A DNA stretch of 64,000 bases. Source: an uncultured Oscillospiraceae bacterium (GTDB taxonomy: Bacteria > Bacillota > Clostridia > Oscillospirales > Oscillospiraceae). The stretch is taken from contig CAUWNA010000040.1 of the NCBI GenBank assembly GCA_963560135.1, forward strand, positions 9,734-73,733. The letters are read 5' to 3'. A program made the position numbers and the translations under genes. The notes under the pieces were generated by a model. That model did no database searches. It worked only from the letters and a program-made list of their open reading frames with translations, and was not told the origin of the DNA. Shown one piece after another: positions 1,813-64,000 of this stretch (positions are counted from its first letter, which is position 1; each line of letters begins with the position of its first letter).

Positions 1813-2432
1813 ATTTTTACTGTTAGCAGCGGCGGCACGCCGCCTCGCCTCTCCCTTTGGGAGAGGTGCCCAGTGCGCACACTGGGCGGAGAAGGGCTTT
1901 TTCACTGACCACAACGTAAAGTAACATTGCTGCCCTCTCAGTCACCTTCGGTGACAGCTCTCCCAGAGATGCGAATCAATAGTAGAAACCGGAAAAAAAG
2001 CGAAAAAAGATGACAAATAGTGCAAAGTGTTAGATAAATGCGGTATCCGGCAGCCAATCGAGATATACTTCAATTGGCTCAACGCCCGAACCGACATCCA
2101 AACCGCCCGCTACGTCCGCTCCTGCCAGGGCCTGCTGACACATATCTACTCATCCCTGGCATTTTCCGCACTTTTGTTGTTTTTCAACTATTGATTCGCA
2201 TCAGAGGGAGAGCCAAGTGGGGCGCTTTTCGTTCGTGGGTGCAGAGACAAACCTACTTGGTCGGCGGGGGGCATGCCCCCGCCCTACGCACGGGTGCACT
2301 CCTTCCCCCAAATTATTGAGCCGTATCGAACCGGGTGACACCCAAAGGTGCTGGTCTATTGCCAGGGTATCAGTCTCGTAATTGACAGCGGCGGCACGCC
2401 GCCTCGCATTGTCAGCGGCCACTGGCCGCCGC
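1813..2432 (+). repeat. Repeat locus R1: string of GC-hairpin modules plus one 3' core copy (2315-2403) and an extra terminal hairpin (2408-2432), interrupted by the MITE at 1969-2201
   Basis: Modules recur nearly verbatim at 22.7, 25.9-26.3 and 35.2-36.0 kb. They are cctctccctttgggagagg (1848-1867), gcccagtgcgcacactgggc, gtcaccttcggtgac, ctctcccagagggagag, ggcggggggcatgcccccgcc and attgagccgtatcgaaccgggtgac...gcggcggcacgccgcc. Confidence 0.85.
1969..2201. mobile_element. 233 bp non-coding MITE-like insertion
   Basis: Perfect 15 bp terminal inverted repeats: atgcgaatcaatagt (1969-1983) and actattgattcgcat (2187-2201). Flanked by direct CAGAG at 1964-1968 and 2202-2206. Uninterrupted paralogous sites at 35393-35412 and 35618-35637 read ctctccCAGAGggagag with a single CAGAG. 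No credible ORF inside. Confidence 0.7.
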
Positions 2433-16597: not shown

Positions 16598-16760
16598 TCT
16601 TAGGAAAATGGCTTTTGCCTGCCGAAGGAGTAACACTCTCAGGCGCCTGGTATTCAGGCAGGGACTAAGGACAGATGTGGCTCTGGAGAATCCCGGAAAC
16701 GGGTACCGAAGGGGCAAGGCGGCTTGGCCGCTGAATCTCTCAGGTAAAAGGACAGAGTGG
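16598..16760 (+). promoter_or_regulatory. Glycine riboswitch leader
   Basis: The 3' aptamer (16681-16757) is near consensus: CTCTGGAGA...ACCGAAGGGGCAA...AATCTCTCAGGTAAAAGGACAGAG. The 5' unit (about 16598-16675) keeps GCCGAAGGAGTAA..CTCTCAGGC..AAGGACAG but has GGAAAA where GGAGAG is expected. Confidence 0.85.
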
Positions 16761-16800
16761 GAAGCATTCCCTGAATTTTCTGGAATTGTACCCATTTTTT

Positions 16801-21704: not shown

Positions 21705-22690
21705 AAAAGAAAATTCTGCTGCTGACCACCGGCGGCACCATCGCCTGCGTTCCCGGCGGAGAGGGGCTGGAGCCTCACCACGCCCAGGTGATGGAGCGGG
21801 AGCTTCTGCAGCTGCGTACCTATTATGACATTTCCGTGCAGGATGTGATGTGCCTGGACTCGTCCAACATCCAGCCCCAGCAGTGGCAGCGCATCGCCCA
21901 GAGCGTGTTTGAAAACCGGGCCGGATTTGACGGCATTGTGATTTCCCACGGCACCGACACCATGGCCTATACCGCTTCGGCGGTGAGCTTCATGCTGCCG
22001 GACATTGACCTGCCGGTGGTGTTCACCGGCTCTCAGCTGCCGCTGTCGGACATGCTCTCCGACGGGCCGGACAATCTGCGCACTGCCTTTGCCATGGCCG
22101 CTTCCGGCCATCCTGGCGTATTTTTGGCCTTTGACCGAAAGGTAATGCTGGGCTGCCGGGCGGTGAAGGTCCGGGCCTCCGGCTTCTCCGCTTTTGAAAG
22201 CGTGAATGCTCGCTACGCCGCCCGGGTAAGCAACCTGGGACTGGTGGTGGACCGGGATGTTCTGCCTGTGCCCACCGGCCCTGCACGGCTGTGCACCGCC
22301 ATCAGCCAGGAGGTATTCCTGCTGAAGCTGACACCGGGCTTAAATCCCGCCATTTTTGACGTGCTGGCGGCTATGGGCTACAAGGGCATTGTGGTGGAGG
22401 CGTTCGGCCTTGGCGGCATGAATGTGCTCAACCGTGGCCTGCGGGGCATCCGCCGCTGCATCGAAGACGGGGTCAGCGTGGTGGTCACCACCCAGTGCCT
22501 GTACGACAGCGCCAATCTGGAAGTTTACCAGGTGGGCAGCCGCCTGCTGGAACTGGGAGTCATCCAGGGCCGGGACATGACCAGCGAAGCCGCCATGACC
22601 AAGCTCATGTGGGCCTTGGGCCAGGGCCTGGATCAAAGCCGCATCGCCGCCCTGTTCCGAAAAAGCCTGGCCGGGGAGATCACACCCTGA
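21701..22690 (+). CDS. ansA: Type I L-asparaginase
   Basis: LLTTGGTIA and HGTDTMAYTA catalytic motifs. ATGA start/stop overlap with the aminotransferase gene. Confidence 0.88.
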   Translation: MKKKILLLTTGGTIACVPGGEGLEPHHAQVMERELLQLRTYYDISVQDVMCLDSSNIQPQQWQRIAQSVFENRAGFDGIVISHGTDTMAYTASAVSFMLPDIDLPVVFTGSQLPLSDMLSDGPDNLRTAFAMAASGHPGVFLAFDRKVMLGCRAVKVRASGFSAFESVNARYAARVSNLGLVVDRDVLPVPTGPARLCTAISQEVFLLKLTPGLNPAIFDVLAAMGYKGIVVEAFGLGGMNVLNRGLRGIRRCIEDGVSVVVTTQCLYDSANLEVYQVGSRLLELGVIQGRDMTSEAAMTKLMWALGQGLDQSRIAALFRKSLAGEITP

Positions 22691-22699
22691 GATCTTCGG

Positions 22700-23140
22700 C
22701 TTCTCCCTGGGGAGAAGCTGGCAAAAATCTTTGATTTTTGACTGATGAGGGGTGGTAATGTCGGATTTTTTAGCGCCGGTGGTAGCTTTCACGCTGCGCC
22801 CCTCATCCGTCACAGCTTCGCCGTGCCACCTTCCCCCGAGGGGGAAGGCTTTGGTGCGGCAGTACTCGGTAGGTGCAGAGGTAAACTCACGTGGTCGGCG
22901 GGGGCAGCCAGCGCCCTACGAAAGGGTTACATTTCCTCAGTTCAAACAATTGAGCCGTAACGAACCGGGTGACTCCCAATGGTGGTGGTCTACCACCAGG
23001 GTAGCAGACTCGTAACTGCCAGCGGCGGCACGCTGCCCCTTTTGTCCCAAACTATTGAGCCGCATCGAACCGGGTGACCCCCAAAGGTGGTGGTCTATTG
23101 CCAGGGTAACAGGCTCGCATTGACTGCGGCGGCACGCCGC
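22700..23140 (+). repeat. Repeat locus R2 (two core copies, 22949-23036 and 23054-23140)
   Basis: Shares these modules with R1, R3 and R4: cttctccctggggagaag, cctcatccgtc...gccaccttcccccgagggggaagg, ggtcggcgggggcagccagcgccctacgaaa, and attgagccgtaacgaaccgggtgac...agcggcggcacgc. Confidence 0.85.
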
Positions 23141-23160
23141 TTATTATGGAGGTGTATTTT

Positions 23161-25806: not shown

Positions 25807-25859
25807 TGTACAGTTGCCAAGTGAGGTGCAGTGGAAGTGGGTAGGTACTATGGTGGACG

Positions 25860-26263
25860 ATAGCGGGCGCATTCCTCATCCGTCTCGCCTGCGGCGAGCC
25901 ACCTCCCCCCCGGGGGAAGGATTTTGGGGTGTTCCTGCCGTGGGAGTGCTGTGGCAGAACCCACCTGGTCGGCGGGGGCAGCCAGCGCCCTACGAAAAGC
26001 ATGCCCCTTTTGCACAGATTACTGAGCCGTAACGAACCGGGTGACCCCCAGCGGTGGTGGTCTACCGCCAGGGTAACAGGCTCGTATTGTCGGCGGCCAC
26101 CGGCCGCCCGCCCTTGCCTCTCCCTTTGGGAGAGGTGCCCAGTGCGCACACTGGGCGGAGAGGGCCTTTCCAGCCACTACCCTGTAACGAACCGGGTGAC
26201 CCCCAATGGCGTGGGTTTATCGCCAGCGTATCAAACTCGAAATGTCAGCGGCCACTGGCCGCC
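25860..26263 (+). repeat. Repeat locus R3 (two core copies, 26018-26108 and 26184-26263)
   Basis: Same ordered modules as R2 and R4, including cctctccctttgggagagg (26117-26135) and gcccagtgcgcacactgggc. It ends 10 nt before the ricT RBS. Confidence 0.85.
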
Positions 26264-35152: not shown

Positions 35153-35210
35153 AATCTCACCACCTCTTGGGCAATTCGGAATTGATTATTGTGGTATTGA
35201 CCCCCATGTG

Positions 35211-35988
35211 CCACCCTTGCCTCTCCCTTTGGGAGAGGTGGCACGGCGTTAGCCGTGACGGAGAGGGCCTTTCCCAGTCCATCACCACGTAACGAACCGG
35301 TTGACACCCAATGGCGTGGGTTTACTGCCAGGGTAGCAGGCTCGTAATTGACAGCGGCGGCACGCCGCCCCTCTCAGTCACCTGCGGTGACAGCTCTCCC
35401 AGAGGGAGAGCCCAGATTGTCAAAAAAGTGCCTCGCAGAGTTCGCCGCCGTAGCGGCGAATAAAGTCAAATCCATTTTCGACCGGGGCGTGTACCTGGGC
35501 GAAAATACTTATCAGGCTGCAAGTGTGGAATTTGTTCGCCACGGGCGGACAAATTATGCACGTAGCAGACTGCAAAAACCTGTCGAAAAGCCCTGTGGGG
35601 GATTTTCGACAGCCTGAGCTCTCCCAGAGGGAGAGCCAAGTAGGGTGCGTTTGGTTTAAGTGCATTCGTTTCGGAAGGGTTCGCCGTTCCTCATCCATCT
35701 CGCCTGCGGCGAGCCACCTTCCCTCCGGGGGAAGGTTTTTTGGTGCGGAGGAACCACAGACGTGCTATCGTAAACGCAGGTGAGCGGCGGGGGCATGCCC
35801 CCGCCCTACGAAAGGTGCGTTCCCTTTCCCAAAACTATTGAGCTGTAACGAACCGGGTGACACCCAAAAGTGTGTGTTTACCACCAGGGTAGCAGGCTCG
35901 TAATTGACAGCGGCGGCACGCCGCCCGGGTGACACCCAATGGCGTGGGTTTAGCAGGCTCGCATTGTCAGCGGCCACTGGCCGCCGCC
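35211..35988 (+). repeat. Repeat locus R4, the largest block (core copies 35289-35369 and 35837-35925, plus truncated 35927-35988)
   Basis: Fills the entire truB-ribF spacer. It contains every module type seen elsewhere, plus a 205 nt hairpin-rich insert (35413-35617) bracketed by a duplicated gctctcccagagggagagcc. Confidence 0.88.
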
Positions 35989-55629: not shown

Positions 55630-55671
55630 TTGACAAATTGGATTTCTGTTTGCTATAATGAACACTGTTCA
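55630..55671 (+). promoter_or_regulatory. Near-consensus promoter plus overlapping 13 bp palindrome TGAACACTGTTCA
   Basis: TTGACA, 18 nt, TATAAT (55630-55659). The palindrome at 55659-55671 covers the predicted transcription start. Confidence 0.5.
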
Positions 55672-55697
55672 CTATGGTGTAATCTTAAGTCCCCCGT

Positions 55698-56027
55698 ATG
55701 AGGTTTTCTATGCTTTTCTTGGTTACCCTACTCGTTTTAGCCATTGGCGGCCGCTGGGCCTGCGGCAGAATCTGTCCCCTGGGAATTTTGGAGGACTTGA
55801 TTTTCAAAATCCCCTTTCCCAAAAAGTACCGTTCTCTCCCCTGGGACCGACAGCTGAGGAAGCTCAAATACATCCTCTTTGTTCTGCTGGTAATCCTCAT
55901 CCCCACCCTGTTTCTTCCCAATCGGGAAGCATGGAAACCCGGCCTTCTGGCTGTAAAGCTGCTGGGATTTTCCACAGTTTTCCTGCTGTTGCTGGTGATC
56001 AAACGGCCCTTTTGCAAATATCTTTGA
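55698..56027 (+). pseudogene. Truncated 4Fe-4S-binding membrane protein (NapH/MauN-like) gene fragment
   Basis: Contains the first CG(R/W)ICPLG motif. It stops at ...KRPFCKYL*, inside what is normally the second FC.YLCP.G motif. The downstream sequence is unrelated. Confidence 0.6.
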
Positions 56028-56188
56028 ATGCCTTGGATGTGGCAGAGGTCTTGGGAATCTCCCGGGCGGCAGCTTACGAGTTGGTTCGCTCCAAAGGATT
56101 CCCACGCATGAATGTCGGCAAACGGATTCTCATTCCGAAAGATGCGTTCCTCGAATGGATCAGGCAGCAGACGGAGGTGAACGGTTGA
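56024..56188 (+). CDS. Excisionase-type (HTH_17/MerR-like) DNA-binding protein, possibly 5'-truncated
   Basis: LDVAEVLGISRAAAYELVRSKGFPRMNVGKRILIPKDAFLEWIRQQ matches the excisionase-family HTH pattern. No ATG and no RBS; only TTG/GTG candidate starts. Confidence 0.5.
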   Translation: MNALDVAEVLGISRAAAYELVRSKGFPRMNVGKRILIPKDAFLEWIRQQTEVNG

Positions 56189-56553
56189 AAAAGTATCGTG
56201 CGCCAAACAAAGAGTTCTTCCGTCTGCCAAACAAGATTTTCGATGTTCCCATGACACCAATTCAATTTACGATCTATGCGTATCTTGTCTGCTGCGCTGG
56301 GAGCAAAGGCTATTGCTGGCCCAGCATCAAAACCATCAGCAACCGGACGGGTATCAGCAAAACATCCGTCAACGAACATCTGAAAGTTCTTGCCAAACGG
56401 CAGATCATTGAAATCGGGAAGCAGAAACGACCTGGCAGTGCTTACAAGAACAACACATACACGCTGCTGGATCTGAACAACCCGGAAGTGTATCGTAATT
56501 TGGATGAAGCAGCGGAATTGCCCTTCGCCATCGACGATATTCCCGCAGTGTGA
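56185..56553 (+). CDS. Mobile-element HTH protein (replication-initiator/DnaD-like N-terminal HTH type)
   Basis: TTG start 7 nt after GGAGG. FFRLPNKIFD...PIQFTIYAYLVCCAGSKGYCWPSIKTISNRTGISKTSVNEHLKVLAKRQII is the pattern common in clostridial integrative elements. Confidence 0.6.
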   Translation: MKKYRAPNKEFFRLPNKIFDVPMTPIQFTIYAYLVCCAGSKGYCWPSIKTISNRTGISKTSVNEHLKVLAKRQIIEIGKQKRPGSAYKNNTYTLLDLNNPEVYRNLDEAAELPFAIDDIPAV

Positions 56554-56592
56554 AGCCGCTGGCAAGCCTGTGTCCGATCATCGTTGTATCGG

Positions 56593-56880
56593 CAGGTGAA
56601 TGTCCATGCTCCTCAGGTGAAAACGCCGTGTGCAGGGAATCGCCAGTGGCATAGGATTATTTACCCAAAAGGTGAAAACCAGAGGTTACGGAAAAGAAAG
56701 CAGGAATAAGGGTGGGGTCAAAACCCCACCCGATTCCCACCGTCCGGCAACGCCGGGCGGGGATTTCCTTAGCGCCGCAACCATTTTGTGTAATAGGGCA
56801 GCAAATGAAAATTGGGCACATAACAAGAATTAAGTGTGCCGTGGTTGGGATTCTGCTACTGCCCCAACCACGATTCCGTG
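56593..56880 (+). other. Non-coding hairpin/iteron region (candidate ori or oriT of the element remnant)
   Basis: AGGTGAA occurs three times (56594, 56615, 56670), two of them extended to AGGTGAAAAC. Three GC hairpins at 56710-56731, 56740-56760 and 56840-56872. The first and third are each followed by CGATTCC. Confidence 0.4.
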
Positions 56881-56961
56881 TGAAATACGAAAATTGGAGG
56901 TGATTCAAACATCGAAAAGCAAGAAACCGTTCGCAAAACAGTTCATATCGAAAAGACGCTG

Positions 56962-57348
56962 GTGCATGCCTATGAGATCTTAAAATCCGAAGCCGGGGTC
57001 GATTCCTTTTCCCAATTCACCAGCAATGCGCTGAATATGTACATCGACCACTTGCTCGGAAAACGCCTGCACCCCGTTGTCAGCAGGGAGGTCCAAAAGG
57101 CCGTCAGAAAAGAAGTCACGCCCATCGCCAGTCGGTTGTCAAAGGGGCTGTATCGATATGCCATTCTCATTGACATACTTTGTCAAATCCTCGTCTACCT
57201 GAACTTTACAGGCGGCGATCAGATCATGGAGGGGTTCCGCAAAAATGCCAACATCCGAATTGCAAAAATGCGCGGTCACATCGACTTGCAATCCATTCTG
57301 GATGACACCTGGGAATTGCGGGAAGGTTTTTGTGACGAAGAGGAATAA
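56962..57348 (+). CDS. Hypothetical protein of the element remnant (start uncertain)
   Basis: 128 aa from GTG. A GGAGG at 56896-56900 sits 60 nt further upstream with no canonical in-frame start after it. No family recognised. Confidence 0.4.
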   Translation: MHAYEILKSEAGVDSFSQFTSNALNMYIDHLLGKRLHPVVSREVQKAVRKEVTPIASRLSKGLYRYAILIDILCQILVYLNFTGGDQIMEGFRKNANIRIAKMRGHIDLQSILDDTWELREGFCDEEE

Positions 57349-57464
57349 CATGACGGTCGCTAACAAAACGCAGGAAACAAGTAAAATACCCGCCAACTTC
57401 TTTGGTAGGTTTCGTGAATGGATATTATCAAATAAGTGTGGTAATGTGTACACTACAAAGGAGG

Positions 57465-61067: not shown

Positions 61068-62327
61068 TTAGGCCCTCGCCAATTTCTCTTTCAGCTCCTT
61101 GCTCATATTGATTGCCACAAAGCCGAGAATGGCAGCCATGGCAAACAACGCACTGCCCATGATAAAAGCTCCCTTGAAGGTACCTGTCAGGTCGTAGAAC
61201 AGGCCAATGGTGAAGCACAGGCCACCGCCGATGATGCTGTTGGCAACCATCATCACAGCCCAAATTTCGGAATAATCCCGATCTCCCACAACGGTACGGG
61301 CCAGCAGCGGGCACTGCACGGTGTACATGGTATTTCCCAGTCCCACCAGGAACACTGCCGGCAGCACAAACATCGGATTGCGGTAGCTCATAAACATCAT
61401 GCTGTATCCCAGGACTGTTGTCACAACGCCCCAGCCGATGCCCGCCTTGACACCATAACGGTCATTGATCCGGCCAACCGCCATGCTGCTGAAAATGGTT
61501 CCCAAATTCAGTGCGACACCGACGATCGATCCGAAGGTAATGCTCTGCTTTAATTCCAGCGTTGCAAAGGTCTGGGTATTGTAGGCCACACCACTGCCGT
61601 AGCTGAAACAGATACAGGCCAGCCAGGCAATATAGAACATGGGAAGCTTCATCGCCTGTTTTTTGGTCAAACCAACGCTGCCCTTGCCGGAAGATGAGCC
61701 CAAATTCACCTGCGCCTCTTCCCCTGCGCCATAGGCAAAGCACCCAACCTCCTGGGGTCTGCGGATGATGGCAAACACAGCCGGCACTGTAACCACAGCG
61801 GCGATTGCTGCCATAATCAGGTAGCTGATTCGCCAGCCGAAATGGTTGATGAGCTGTCCGGTCAGCAGGCTGTACAGCGTCGTCGCCACACTGCCGGTTG
61901 CCATCACCGTACCCAGGACCGTGCCTGTATTCTTCTTAAACCACATATTGATCACGACCGGGATCGCCACAAAGCCGGTAAACGCCTGGGCCAGACCGAT
62001 AATAGCACCGGAGATGTAGAACATCACCACATTATGGTAGGTGGACATCATCCCAAGGCCGACCACCTGGATCAATGCTGCCGTTCCCATGATCTTACCG
62101 ATGTTTTTTGTATTCAGAAACTTTGCAGCTGTTGTGTACAACAGGGCCATTGCCACTGCGTTGATGCTGGTATACGCCGTCAACGCGCTGACACCACACC
62201 CCAGCTCTTTCACGATCGGCGTTACAAAATTTCCCATTGCGGACATGGTCATGCCGTCGATGCCGATTTTTATCAAGATGCACGCCAGCATAACCTTCCA
62301 AGCGTAGTGTTTTTTGTCATTCTTCAT
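61068..62327 (-). CDS. MFS transporter (OFA-like), paralog 1
   Basis: 419 aa with 12 predicted TM segments. Roughly 60 percent identical by eye to the adjacent paralog. Confidence 0.85.
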   Translation of the reverse strand: MKNDKKHYAWKVMLACILIKIGIDGMTMSAMGNFVTPIVKELGCGVSALTAYTSINAVAMALLYTTAAKFLNTKNIGKIMGTAALIQVVGLGMMSTYHNVVMFYISGAIIGLAQAFTGFVAIPVVINMWFKKNTGTVLGTVMATGSVATTLYSLLTGQLINHFGWRISYLIMAAIAAVVTVPAVFAIIRRPQEVGCFAYGAGEEAQVNLGSSSGKGSVGLTKKQAMKLPMFYIAWLACICFSYGSGVAYNTQTFATLELKQSITFGSIVGVALNLGTIFSSMAVGRINDRYGVKAGIGWGVVTTVLGYSMMFMSYRNPMFVLPAVFLVGLGNTMYTVQCPLLARTVVGDRDYSEIWAVMMVANSIIGGGLCFTIGLFYDLTGTFKGAFIMGSALFAMAAILGFVAINMSKELKEKLARA

Positions 62328-62351
62328 TTTACAGCCTCTTATTCAAAAAAT

Positions 62352-63623
62352 TTACATCGTCTGACATTTGCTTTTCCGGCTAAGATTCATTGCCGTACAT
62401 CCCAGCAAGCTAGCTACCGTATAAAACCCAATTGCCATAACAAATGCGCCAGAAAAACTGCCAAACTTGTCATAGAACAGGCCAATTGTAGAATACAGTC
62501 CTCCACCGATCAGGCTGTTAACCATCATCATTCGTGACCAAATTCCAGAGTATTCTCGACTTCCGACAATGCTTCTGGCTAGCAACGGGCACTGTACCAT
62601 ATACATGCTGTTGCCCAATCCCACTAAAAATACTGCTGGATACACGATAGCAGGATTTCGGAAACTTAAAAACGCCGTACCATAGCCCAGTGCTGTAGTG
62701 ACTGTTCCCCACATTAGGCCAGCCTTAACACCAAACCGGTCATTGATTTTACCAACAACCAAACTGCTTAACGTTCCACCAAAGCCAAATACCACACCCA
62801 CTGTTGCGCCAAAGTTGATGCTCTGCCTCAACTCCATGGTCACAAAAGGTGTAAAATAACCGGATACACCACAGCTGTAGCTATACATGATACAGGCAAT
62901 CCATGCAATGTACAGCAATGGCAGACGAAATGCCTGCTTTTGGGTCAATCCGCACATTCCTGTGTCTGTGGACACCGTAGCTCCTTCCGGATCTGTTTCC
63001 TCTGCTCCATAGGGCTTACAGCCAACCTCCTCCGGCGTTTTTATCAAGAAAAACACCGCCGGAATCGAGATACAAGCCGCCGCAAGAGCCATGATCAGGT
63101 ACGAAAGGCGCCAACCCAAGTGGGTAATCATTTGGGCTGTCATCAGCGAATACACCATGGAAACCGCTGTCCCAATCGCCACCACGCTTCCCAAAACCGT
63201 GCCATTATTTTTGCGGAACCACATATTGATTACGATCGGCAGTGCCACAAAACCGGTAAAGGCATTGCCTGCGCCGATGATCGTTCCGGACAGGCAGAAC
63301 ATTGCAGGGGTCTTGTAGGTTGCCATCAACGCCAGTCCCACCACTTCTGCAATTGATGCAAAGCCCATAATTTTACCAATATGGCGTGTATTCAGCCACT
63401 TGGCCGCTGTCGTATACAGAAGCGCCATCGAAATGGCATTGAAATTTGTATAGGCCGTAAGTTCGCTGACCTGGCAGCCAAGCTCCTGGACGATGGGTGT
63501 GACAAAGTTTCCCATTGCCACACCCGTCAGTCCCCCAGTTCCAAGCTTGATCAGGATGCAGGCAAAAACCACTTTCCAGGCATAATGCACTTTTTTCTTA
63601 CCCATATTCTCTGCCTTTTTCAC
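62352..63623 (-). CDS. MFS transporter (OFA-like), paralog 2
   Basis: 423 aa from a GTG start that overlaps the upstream stop codon (GTGA). An alternative ATG lies at 63605. Visibly more AT-rich than paralog 1. Confidence 0.85.
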   Translation of the reverse strand: MKKAENMGKKKVHYAWKVVFACILIKLGTGGLTGVAMGNFVTPIVQELGCQVSELTAYTNFNAISMALLYTTAAKWLNTRHIGKIMGFASIAEVVGLALMATYKTPAMFCLSGTIIGAGNAFTGFVALPIVINMWFRKNNGTVLGSVVAIGTAVSMVYSLMTAQMITHLGWRLSYLIMALAAACISIPAVFFLIKTPEEVGCKPYGAEETDPEGATVSTDTGMCGLTQKQAFRLPLLYIAWIACIMYSYSCGVSGYFTPFVTMELRQSINFGATVGVVFGFGGTLSSLVVGKINDRFGVKAGLMWGTVTTALGYGTAFLSFRNPAIVYPAVFLVGLGNSMYMVQCPLLARSIVGSREYSGIWSRMMMVNSLIGGGLYSTIGLFYDKFGSFSGAFVMAIGFYTVASLLGCTAMNLSRKSKCQTM

Positions 63624-63982
63624 CGTGTTCCCGCCTCCACAAATCCCTCGTAGGACTGGGTAATATAGGTGTTGAACGATGCCTTATACGCTTCGGTGTG
63701 CATACTCTCCGATGCCATAAAAAAGTACTGGAACATTACAAATACGATCATCATTCCCACCAAAGACCGCATTCCAATGTGATCTTTGAAGAAAGGCAGA
63801 ATCTCTCTAAGGGTCGTGTCAGACAGGAAGATCGCAGGACTCAGCATCCACAAAAACAGGATCAGCGTAGAAATCTTCATCACAACGGCATCCCACTGCC
63901 CGCAGGGAATCAGCGGCGGCGTAGTCATTCCGATGATCAAAAACCCGAAACAAGCGATGTAATACAGCGTTGCCAAAGTCAT
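63620..63982 (-). CDS. Hypothetical small membrane protein
   Basis: 120 aa with about 4 hydrophobic segments, translationally coupled to MFS paralog 2. The start lies near the window edge, so the true N-terminus is uncertain. Confidence 0.45.
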   Translation of the reverse strand: MTLATLYYIACFGFLIIGMTTPPLIPCGQWDAVVMKISTLILFLWMLSPAIFLSDTTLREILPFFKDHIGMRSLVGMMIVFVMFQYFFMASESMHTEAYKASFNTYITQSYEGFVEAGTR

Positions 63983-64000
63983 TTTCCACGGCGTTCCAGA

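Follow-up and report, generated by a model that had tools for sequence, protein, structure and literature searches.

Four intergenic blocks of nested hairpin-rich repeats in an uncultured gut Oscillospiraceae bacterium

Composition of the blocks

The window, that is, the whole 64-kb stretch of DNA analysed here, comes from a gut bacterium close to Faecousia. All genes checked in it are housekeeping genes, and four repeat blocks (blocks 1-4: 1813-2432, 22700-23140, 25860-26263, and 35211-35988; ~3.5% of the window; Table 1) sit in the gaps between them, just where an earlier note on this DNA had placed them. A search of the window with the core pattern AACCGGNTGACNCCCAN{14,20}CCAGNGTA returns seven matches, all on the + strand, compared with none in 100 shuffles, and an eighth core, truncated (35925-35985), emerges from a profile search. 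Repeat detection recovers the core as a family of 6-8 copies (D1-D3) and both head types as families of three copies (D4 and D5); BLAST of the modules reveals no member of the family elsewhere in the window. All eight cores and all heads run the same way, head-to-tail. The ungapped identity between copies is 68-85%; the first estimate was 70-90%.

The blocks are a nest of several small elements rather than one family. The core (~85-105 nt) carries a terminal GC hairpin, and each of the four blocks has this hairpin as its 3' edge; the 5' ends of the blocks differ, and the core alone has no terminal inverted repeats. The TL/TR element is bounded by inverted arms at 35209-35247 and 35384-35422 (39 nt, 77% complementary), with a second arm pair at 35255-35267 and 35369-35381 (13 nt, 92% complementary). 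The D/B-head element has an inverted repeat of 14 nt (93% complementary). Two unrelated MITE-like inserts complete the nest. TL/TR units without any core occur in block 1 and in gut viral contigs, indicating that the heads have a life of their own; the coreless payload variant of block 1 is also present in L049, L014, and L038.

Table 1 Parts of the four repeat blocks, in window coordinates.
Block	Positions	Strand	Feature	Repeat family
1	1822-1845	+	Solo terminal-hairpin subunit, a 3' core fragment, opens the block	D20
1	1829-1843	+	Hairpin GCGGCGgcaCGCCGC of the solo subunit	
1	1846-1897	+	TL, left double-hairpin arm: CCTCTCCC-ttt-GGGAGAGG, GCCCAGTG-cgca-CACTGGGC, then GGAGAAGGG	D4
1	1898-1932	+	Short coreless payload between TL and TR	
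1	1933-1967	+	TR, right arm, 5' part: CCCTCTC-ag-TCACCttcGGTGA-cag-CTCTCCC-AGA; interrupted within the loop of its last hairpin	
1	1968-2202	.	Unrelated 235-nt MITE in the TR hairpin loop; perfect 16-bp TIRs GATGCGAATCAATAGT	
1	2203-2321	+	TR, 3' part GGGAGAGCCAAG, then B-type extension	
1	2322-2403	+	Core copy 1; terminal hairpin 2388-2402	
1	2404-2432	+	Extra terminal-hairpin subunit tcgcattgtcaGCGGCCactGGCCGCcgc, closes the block just before a bidirectional terminator	D7
2	22697-22798	+	Module D: hairpins GCTTCTCCC/GGGAGAAGC and CAAAAATC/GATTTTTG, then TGACTGATGAGGGG and a 46-nt payload	
2	22799-22955	+	B head (CCCCTCATCCGTCA, which pairs with D; variable hairpin; CCTTCCCCC-ga-GGGGGAAGG with a short T run) and B extension	D5, D8
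2	22956-23038	+	Core copy 2	
2	23039-23141	+	Short linker and core copy 3; terminal hairpin 23126-23140 ends 7 nt before the next gene's GGAGG	
3	25870-26028	+	B head and B extension, without module D	D5
3	26029-26108	+	Core copy 4; hairpin variant GCGGCC/GGCCGC	
3	26109-26182	+	TL arm and A-type pre-core	D4
3	26183-26263	+	Core copy 5; ends about 11 nt before the PSP1/yaaT ribosome-binding site	
4	35211-35287	+	TL arm (second hairpin GGCACGGC-gtta-GCCGTGAC) and pre-core	D4
4	35288-35369	+	Core copy 6, enclosed by TL and TR	
4	35369-35412	+	TR arm, inverted repeat of TL	
4	35413-35617	.	Element X, separate ~205-nt hairpin-rich insert	
4	35618-35686	+	Second TR hairpin copy and C2 linker (ccaagtagggtgcg...ttcgccg)	
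4	35687-35843	+	B head (terminator-like ACCTTCCCTCCGGGGGAAGGT, then TTTTTT) and B extension	
4	35844-35925	+	Core copy 7	
4	35925-35988	+	Truncated core copy 8; terminal hairpin 35970-35984	

The earlier note described an unnamed, modular, intergenic family of REP/BIME type. The modularity, the intergenic location, and the lack of a name hold, but several nested elements are involved. All of the modules it listed are present, although ggcggggg-catg-cccccgcc is intact only in blocks 1 and 4 and is replaced by ggcgggggcagccagcgcc in blocks 2 and 3. The two composite units require other lengths. The unit starting with cctctccc, put at ~190 nt, spans 155 nt when counted from the head to the end of the core (26109-26263), and about 200 nt once the right arm is included (35211-35412); the unit starting with cctcatcc, put at ~260 nt, spans about 240 nt (25870-26108), and about 345 nt once the D module upstream of it is included (22697-23038).

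Several parts had escaped that first reading. Module D (22697-22752 plus payload) has copies at 15 or more further loci. Around the core, the cctctccc head is an inverted repeat of the cctctcag...ctctccc-aga-gggagag piece, and the terminal-hairpin subunit also occurs solo or duplicated (1822-1845 and 2404-2432). The 235-nt TIR element (1968-2202) and the 205-nt element X (35413-35617), both unrelated inserts, are likewise new. The former is flanked by a 3-bp duplication (AGA at 1965-1967 and 2203-2205), and in the red-fox relative L033 the site is empty and intact (ctctcccAGAgggagag); compared with the L033 orthologue, the B-type extension at 2203-2321 has an internal deletion of ~125 nt. Element X is flanked by a duplicated 20-nt hairpin (gctctcccagagggagagcc at 35393-35412 and 35618-35637), and a relative species has a copy with 93-96% identity to it, which lies at another locus and is oriented differently.

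Empty sites, strain variants, and distribution

At the sites of blocks 2, 3, and 4, the spacers of relatives are only 28-60 nt long (once 105 nt), compared with 470-815 nt here. The truB-ribF spacer, 815 nt here, measures 28 nt in the three relatives whose TruB is 80-82% identical, and 48 nt in one further relative, picked by an 84% identical pyrophosphatase; the asparaginase-pyrophosphatase spacer is 33-34 nt versus 470 nt, and the holB-PSP1 spacer is 58-60 nt versus 481 nt. About 40 kb of sequence from these empty-site relatives contains no family module. The short spacers indicate that the blocks are lineage-specific insertions. The short asparaginase-pyrophosphatase spacer is found even in a relative whose pyrophosphatase is 94% identical; the family, called old in the earlier note, is thus old in a relative sense only.

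Because the sites are empty in close relatives, the most likely identity of the blocks is selfish mobile DNA of a REP/BIME, BOX or MITE kind rather than ancestral regulatory sequence. In the reading that we favour, they are probably non-autonomous repeats that entered the short spacers of operons in a single Faecousia-like lineage of Oscillospiraceae and accumulated as a nest of distinct small elements.

The blocks also differ among strains and species. Strains of the same species with identical TruB protein carry either an 815-nt or a 512-nt version of the truB-ribF spacer, with different module order; the junctions coincide with microhomologies of CTCTCCC or CCG. Between two species whose flanks are 93% identical, the orthologous copies are set apart by a ~125-nt deletion, a hairpin-subunit duplication, and the MITE insertion. 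Recombination alone explains the strain and species variation seen. Neither the core nor TL/TR yielded a clean insertion of a single unit whose junctions were defined or that showed a target duplication: the empty sites are too diverged, or the blocks too composite, for junctions to be read, and a clear 3-bp duplication is found only at the unrelated MITE 1968-2202. In a flank scan of phage contigs for an empty TL/TR site, 10/10 contigs have the element.

The window copies all lie on one strand within 34 kb, as might be expected if the family were an artefact of assembly or a segmental duplication limited to this contig. The chance of either is negligible, since the same blocks are independently assembled in several ENA and Logan samples, cores lie beside unrelated genes on dozens of other contigs and in one MAG, and both orientations occur within single contigs. 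The core is present in 38 real metagenome stretches and one GTDB MAG, so that the modules are not restricted to the window; such a restriction was one of two outcomes that the earlier note named as counting against its reading. Altogether, related organisms carry ~100 cores on unlinked contigs, distributed over ~56 intergenic blocks. All come from a narrow Oscillospiraceae clade, mostly in fox, raccoon-dog, and related gut metagenomes. Short-read contigs end at the repeat blocks; since assemblies break exactly there, MAGs of the clade can be expected to lack the family systematically. The TL left arm is more widely distributed, in gut Clostridia and phage-like contigs; its hairpin is present in 24 gut viral contigs (IMG/VR).

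According to our own crude gene finder, 13 blocks lie between convergent genes and 3 between divergent genes, a placement that fits tolerated selfish DNA. Of the blocks flanked by co-directional genes, 13 have the sense and 6 the antisense orientation, a bias that is not significant. The orientation relative to local GC skew is 19 against 17, and so a replication-fork-linked single-strand mechanism gains no support. A replication-oriented motif (AIMS- or Chi-like), suggested by the + strand-only copies in the window, was likewise rejected given the mixed orientations elsewhere and the lack of a link to GC skew.

Folding, compensated stems, and RNA

As single-stranded DNA, both strands of TL/TR fold well (z = -5.0 and -5.4), the whole-element hairpin included. 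The hairpin stems vary between copies by fully compensated changes. In 26 B units, 98.3% of stem cells are paired, compared with 93.6% in shuffles, and 46 cells carry double changes, compared with 16 in shuffles (0/500 shuffles reach 46); four stem classes follow cctcatccg. The terminal hairpin of the core occurs as GCGGCG/CGCCGC, GCGGCC/GGCCGC, GCGGGT/ACCCGC, and CCGGCG/CGCCGG, and as GCAGTC/GACTGC at the orthologous truB site. One pairing, between the A-type pre-core CCACCACC and GGTGGTGG of the core, was rejected, as its variants show no covariation.

Compensatory variation of this strength would also be expected if the units were functional structured RNAs that spread via selection for function, either in cis as 3'-UTR or intercistronic stabilisers, terminators, or processing sites, or as multi-copy small or guide RNAs (omega-RNA-like). 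With RNA parameters, block 2 folds better on the + strand (-153.7, z = -5.05) than on the - strand (-133.9, z = -2.66), leaving room for a role at the RNA level. Consistent with such a role, G.U pairs are common in the predicted core stems, the B head resembles an intrinsic terminator, the 3' core hairpin often lies a few nt 5' of a ribosome-binding site, and sense blocks outnumber antisense blocks between co-directional genes. However, the sense excess is the non-significant one given above, block 4 is antisense to the truB-ribF operon, and the module order varies among strains of one species. The G/A and U/C frequencies at the main wobble pair match the expectation of independence, and G.U pairs were therefore rejected as proof of + strand selection. 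Moreover, the same operons run with 28-60 nt spacers in relatives, indicating that nothing ancestral depends on the element. Taken together, a functional RNA is a minor possibility.

The Rfam searches argue in the same direction. At the gathering threshold, the only match in the whole window is a glycine riboswitch located elsewhere, so no catalogued family, the other outcome raised in the earlier note, accounts for the blocks. At an E-value threshold, the best match of blocks 2, 3, and 4 is whalefall-1 (RF01762), and eleven TL-bearing viral loci yield only tRNAs. A known RNA family, ribozyme, or HEARO/omega-RNA was rejected accordingly, and no TnpB, IscB, or reverse transcriptase gene is found near the units. 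An origin from tRNA or tmRNA was rejected, ARAGORN finding neither, and so was a plasmid origin for lack of a match. A phage origin was rejected too, since the matches were limited to short stretches of the head module in fecal contigs that are labelled 'Bacteriophage sp.' and carry no annotation. An outward promoter from the TTGACA in the 3' part of the core was considered as well; a properly spaced -10 box occurs only at 23120-23147, where the candidate promoter would start transcription within the ribosome-binding site.

Known systems and mobilisation

The family resembles REP/BIME of Enterobacteria and Pseudomonas (REP, PU, REPIN, RAYT) in its short, GC-rich, imperfect palindromes, strictly intergenic location, mosaics with other short motifs, and preference for the 3' sides of genes. 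Both are also targeted by other elements: IS1397-type elements insert into the loop of the REP hairpin, and the MITE 1968-2202 sits in a hairpin loop here. The likeness drawn in the earlier note goes no further. The stems (CTCTCCC, CTTCTCC, CCTTCCCCC, GCGGCG, and others) share no GTAG-type head, and the copies are head-to-tail on one strand rather than alternating. REP has nothing that corresponds to the core, which is long (~85 nt), highly conserved, and for the most part unpaired. No RAYT is seen in the window or the related loci, and there is no sequence similarity.

Pneumococcal BOX elements (boxA - boxB(n) - boxC) are modular, with fixed order and variable module number; their terminal modules are partly complementary, so that the whole unit can fold, and they have no known transposase. 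They are non-coding and intergenic, near gene starts and ends. The present family shares all of these features, but its sequences are unrelated and its hosts belong to another clade. In addition, its arms are double hairpins with a hypervariable, compensated second stem, and it has a constant 3' core anchor.

Correia/NEMIS, ERIC/IRU, and RUP are bacterial MITEs. As in MITEs, TL...TR and D...B-head are 100-350 nt long, non-coding, bounded by inverted repeats, and foldable into one long hairpin. They are also dispersed, specific to a lineage, and variable among strains. In contrast to MITEs, their inverted repeats are ~55-nt composites of two local hairpins, and core-only and tandem-core forms lack inverted repeats; neither a target-site duplication nor a parent IS could be identified for them. 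Among the Rfam models, whalefall-1 alone hits the TL arm repeatedly, and it shares the layout of two hairpins and a purine-rich tail (CUCUCC-loop-GGAGAG, second hairpin, GGAGAGG-like); however, 16-17 bits against a gathering cut-off of 37 (E = 0.08-0.2) is not a match. Like IS200/IS605-derived PATEs, the family has a 3' terminal hairpin and no observed duplication, but it has no fixed short target at either flank, its 5' ends are heterogeneous, and it lacks a replication strand bias.

One constant hairpin end, a variable other end, and no duplication are also features of IS91/Helitron elements. Accordingly, a single modular element might be moved whole by one-ended rolling-circle (IS91/Helitron-like) or retro-type copying. 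If copying started or ended at the constant 3' core hairpin, read-through, truncation, and template switching would give variable 5' heads. This would fit the core terminal hairpin that ends the four window blocks, the tandem arrays of 5'-truncated cores with a common start at model position 11, the composite junctions, core-aacaaaac-core among them, that recur at unlinked loci, and the lack of an observed target duplication. On the other hand, the 3' flanks of the core are heterogeneous, with no fixed target sequence and no conserved tetranucleotide; no Y2 HUH transposase or reverse transcriptase gene is seen in the sequence examined; and the coreless TL/TR units of block 1 and of gut viral contigs do not fit one element moved whole. 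One-ended copying is therefore unlikely.

The mobilising enzyme that the earlier note proposed to look for was found neither in the window nor in ~290 kb of related contigs: there is no transposase, RAYT (Y1 HUH) gene, or multi-copy ORF in the related loci, nor a transposase or RAYT in the window; tblastn gives no match for IS200/IS608 TnpA; and a parent IS with matching ends is not seen in the window, related loci, or viral contigs. For the selfish repeats that we favour, we infer mobilisation in trans. An enzyme encoded elsewhere in the genome would copy units to new sites, probably using folded single-stranded hairpin DNA as its substrate; it may be a transposase of HUH type, or one that recognises hairpins in some other way, with the constant 3' core hairpin as its anchor. 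The core would be one mobile component, with the GC hairpin as its 3' edge; the TL...TR double-hairpin element, which may carry the core as payload, a second; D...B-head, built on the TL...TR plan, a third; and ordinary TIR elements (the MITE and X), inserting into or beside these hairpins, a fourth. New copies would preferentially land next to or within existing ones, giving clusters. Recombination at the shared 7-8 nt CTCTCCC-type stems, together with slippage and with gene conversion among copies at separate loci, would then rearrange the modules, removing some and duplicating others. The hairpins may persist via compensated changes either because mobilisation requires them or because palindromes self-correct.

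Effects on host genes would be by-products. On the other strand, the terminal hairpin of core copy 8 provides the last codons and the TGA stop of truB, giving TruB a new tail and stop codon. Other by-products may be the hairpins that lie close upstream of ribosome-binding sites and the operons that now contain terminator-like stems. The blocks would document how repeats entered tightly packed housekeeping operons of this uncultured gut lineage of Oscillospiraceae very recently, rewriting the TruB C-terminus.

No description of the family was found in the literature. It is an uncatalogued, lineage-specific family of small, hairpin-rich, non-coding repeats, of a kind that is itself already known; the TL double hairpin, widespread in human-gut viral contigs, is also uncatalogued. 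As a long shot, arms with an invariant first and a hypervariable, compensated second hairpin, together with the invariant, mostly unpaired core, could serve as recognition scaffold for an undescribed hairpin-directed mobilisation system, possibly one-ended rolling-circle or RNA-mediated, common to gut Clostridia and their phages; the variable stem might then be an address or specificity determinant instead of neutral sequence. The family would suit strain typing once a closed genome exists, and offers a tractable system for what mobilises hairpin repeats in Clostridia.

The mechanical ORFs pointed out in the earlier note (25814-26032 and 35348-35617) exist, but mis-annotation of the blocks as protein is rare: public gene calls on the contig leave them empty, and a translated block matched a single spurious 160-aa ORF among 5.8 billion proteins. 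P0122, a 691-aa pyrophosphatase homologue considered as a possible repeat fusion, is an internal duplication.

Insertion of the repeat blocks

The strongest result of the analysis is that blocks 2-4, three of the four intergenic repeat blocks, are insertions (see table). About 40 kb from the relatives with short spacers contains no module of the family, and in a relative with 91% identical TruB the core, the repeat unit of about 85 nt, abuts truB. Therefore, the invasion is specific to a shallow clade. At block 4, the element has replaced the 3' end of truB. The TruB tail reads ...KSFWAAASGR* in the window versus ...KSFFAV* in element-free relatives, and its last five residues plus TGA are encoded by the reverse complement of the terminal hairpin (35967-35988). 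The 91% relative, which has a different, compensated hairpin, has the tail ...KSFWAVGDC*. By our own gene calls, 17 of 27 convergent downstream genes across all loci end within 20 nt of the element 3' edge, 7 of these 17 overlapping it by 17-20 nt.

Direct reading of the sequence bears out all four blocks described in an earlier note. Repeat finding in the window places the core in families with 6-8 members (68-85% ungapped identity) and each of the two heads in a 3-copy family. A degenerate core pattern gives seven matches, all on the + strand, versus none in 100 shuffles, and searching with a profile of these copies recovers an eighth, truncated core. By BLAST of each module, all copies in the window lie within the four blocks. 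The earlier note also held that such blocks become mis-annotated as proteins. The mechanical ORFs cited there are present, and mis-annotation does occur but is rare: searching with a translated block, we find a single spurious 160-aa protein among 5.8 billion sequences.

All window genes checked are housekeeping genes, with no transposase, recombinase or reverse transcriptase among them. The window is a section of contig NODE_100 (ENA assembly ERZ26881846), and its pyrophosphatase is closest, among named organisms, to those of Candidatus Faecousia intestinavium (88%) and of Faecousia sp. or Oscillospiraceae MAGs. The relative Ca. Faecousia intestinavium (L084, 5652-7430) carries an extra 592-aa gene, without a Pfam match and absent from the window, between the pyrophosphatase gene and holB. 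Two stretches of the window are low in GC (0.48-0.51 versus about 0.60), one of which is possibly the remnant of an integrated element.

Repeat blocks, modules and other features of the window
Feature	Position	Description	Spacer in window	Spacer in relatives
Block 1	1813-2432	between CitMHS transporter and rnfCDGEAB operon, both converging on the block		
Block 2	22700-23140	between asparaginase and DHH-CBS pyrophosphatase	470 nt	33-34 nt (pyrophosphatase 88%, 94% identical), 105 nt (84%)
Block 3	25860-26263	between holB and PSP1/yaaT	481 nt	58-60 nt
Block 4	35211-35988	between ribF and truB, within and antisense to the nusA-infB-rbfA-truB-ribF cluster	815 nt	28 nt (TruB 80-82% identical), 48 nt (fourth relative)
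Truncated core	35925-35985	eighth copy		
TL/TR arms	35209-35247 / 35384-35422 and 35255-35267 / 35369-35381	left and right arms		
Module D	22697-22752			
MITE	1968-2202	235 nt, perfect 16-bp TIRs GATGCGAATCAATAGT, 3-bp AGA duplication (span 1965-2205)		
Element X	35413-35617	about 205 nt, hairpin-rich, imperfect inverted ends of about 15 nt (CAGRYTGTCRAAAA)		
Terminal-hairpin subunits	1822-1845 and 2404-2432	30 nt, solo or duplicated		
Glycine riboswitch aptamer	16673-16765 (+)	RF00504, 66.3 bits, upstream of Na+/alanine symporter gene		
Low-GC stretch, possible remnant	55658-57400	small HTH_17 (excisionase-like) and HTH_36/DnaD-like ORFs, no integrase nearby		
Low-GC stretch	62000-64000	two MFS transporter genes		

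A nest of elements

The blocks are a nest of several elements. The core, about 105 nt long with its ancestral pre-core ccgtccaccacc(a/c)tgtaacg, has strongly conserved, mostly unpaired stretches (CGAACCGGGTGAC, CCAGGGTA, CAGnCTCG and ATTGnCAGCGG) and is closed by a 6-bp GC hairpin that forms the element's 3' edge. The double-hairpin arms TL (the 'cctctccc' head) and TR (the 'cctctcag-hairpin-ctctccc-aga-gggagag' piece) are mutual inverted repeats, enclosing a core in block 4 and a short coreless payload in block 1. Module D, overlooked in the earlier note and found again at at least 15 other loci, and the B head ('cctcatcc') share this plan, in the order hairpin, hairpin, half-stem, payload, half-stem, variable hairpin, hairpin.

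Two unrelated elements are inserted. The MITE lies precisely within the loop of the ctctccc-aga-gggagag hairpin of TR, resembling IS elements that target REP loops, and a red-fox relative (L033) preserves the empty site as an uninterrupted hairpin. Element X has copies elsewhere (L081 3713-3914; L080 4870-5015), 93-96% identical in a species with only 82% identical TruB, at another locus and in the opposite orientation. In both places X is bordered on each side by a copy of one complete hairpin (20 nt in the window, about 31 nt in the other species), an unusually long duplication of hairpin size.

A perfect -35-like TTGACA lies in the 3' part of the core, at a distance of 16 nt from the edge of the element (35344-35369 and other type-1 core ends). 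The core copy at 23120 has TTGACT instead (23115-23141), which together with a flanking TATTAT makes a promoter-like site (23120-23147); the other core copies lack a -10 box.

Distribution and kinship of the modules

The modules are not limited to the window. Among 185,579 GTDB species representatives, a single MAG (uncultured Oscillospiraceae bacterium HGM13047) contains the exact core pattern. Metagenome contigs, from JGI and other sources, add 38 real stretches and one chance match; no IMG/VR contig has the pattern. The 38 stretches come mostly from red-fox, raccoon-dog and 'Charlie' co-assemblies and ERZ1032299; flanking DNA of the red-fox organism shares about 93% identity with the window. 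A profile search of these related loci yields about 100 cores, distributed over about 56 separate blocks and present in both orientations. The TL hairpin (22 nt) is present in 24 IMG/VR contigs (L055-L078), in each case within TL...payload...TR with payloads that differ from those of the window, and human fecal contigs contain TL and B-head fragments. Therefore, the arms are far more widespread than the core. In these gut viral contigs, TL...payload...TR has a payload of about 100 nt that is unrelated to the core, and the element matches no Rfam family; one phage-like locus, recovered in about a dozen of the contigs, carries it twice, about 2.8 kb apart.

The repeats work in a similar way to REP/BIME mosaics, pneumococcal BOX elements and bacterial MITEs. 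The resemblance to REP/BIME suggested earlier holds for the way of working but not for membership: a GTAG head and alternating orientation are lacking, and neither the window nor the related loci covered yielded a RAYT. Of the features of MITEs they show inverted repeats, and those only in the arms. The earlier note recognised no named family; the repeats belong to no Rfam family, and a literature search found no description. They are real and uncatalogued, and are best placed among small dispersed hairpin repeats, a known class.

Stem compensation, genomic context and proposed mobilisation

Hairpin stems change between copies with full compensation. Among 26 B units (B head plus extension), 98.3% of cells are paired, versus 93.6% in shuffles and about 50% with slid partners, and 46 cells are double changes versus 16 in shuffles, a value reached by 0 of 500. 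The hairpin 3' of cctcatccg takes four forms (CTCGCC/GGCGAG, CCCGGC/GCCGGG, CACGGC/GCCGTG and CAGCCC/GGGCTG). Compensated variants of the terminal hairpin number at least five, including one that the 91% relative carries at its orthologous truB site, and the second TL hairpin differs in nearly each independent copy. A rival explanation is that the repeats function at the RNA level. Folding with RNA parameters favours the + strand of block 2 (z = -5.05 versus -2.66). The stems are perfect palindromes and therefore fold on either strand, the TL-core-TR unit folds equally on both strands as ssDNA (z = -5.0 and -5.4), and the frequent G.U pair of the core is in line with independence. The stems could be kept intact by quasi-palindrome correction or gene conversion, without RNA-level selection. 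The TL arms (26114-26165, 35217-35268) recurrently match Rfam whalefall-1 below threshold (16-17 bits, cut-off 37), with a common layout of two hairpins and a purine tail; the first hairpin of module D (22678-22720) is also a sub-threshold match.

Blocks flanked by co-directional genes are sense in 13 cases and antisense in 6, a difference that is not significant. Convergent gene pairs flank 13 blocks and divergent pairs 3, and orientation relative to GC skew is 19 to 17. This pattern indicates DNA tolerated where it is least harmful. It does not fit a strand-specific cis-regulator or a replication-oriented motif.

The best reading is that of selfish non-autonomous hairpin repeats mobilised in trans, of which new copies would insert beside or into existing ones, giving clusters that recombination would then remodel. 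We favour a single-stranded hairpin substrate, on which an HUH-type enzyme would be anchored at the constant 3' hairpin. A one-ended rolling-circle or retro-type mechanism is a second rival; the window and related loci yield no mobilising enzyme, conserved target or clean junction.

The blocks differ between strains and species. With an identical TruB protein, strains carry either the 815-nt arrangement or one of 512 nt, in which B is followed by a full TL-core unit; the two differ at CTCTCCC and CCG microhomologies. The B copies differ between the two arrangements, suggesting conversion from other copies. The red-fox orthologue of block 1 has no MITE, a B unit longer by about 125 nt and a single terminal-hairpin subunit, and other orthologous pairs differ in that a 232-nt unit is duplicated in tandem or a core has received foreign insertions. 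In an HGM13047-like species (L045, 1100-1740), about 640 nt of foreign hairpin-rich DNA splits a core, both junctions carrying a TAC repeat; in L001 the orthologous site is uninterrupted. Many short-read contigs end at the blocks.
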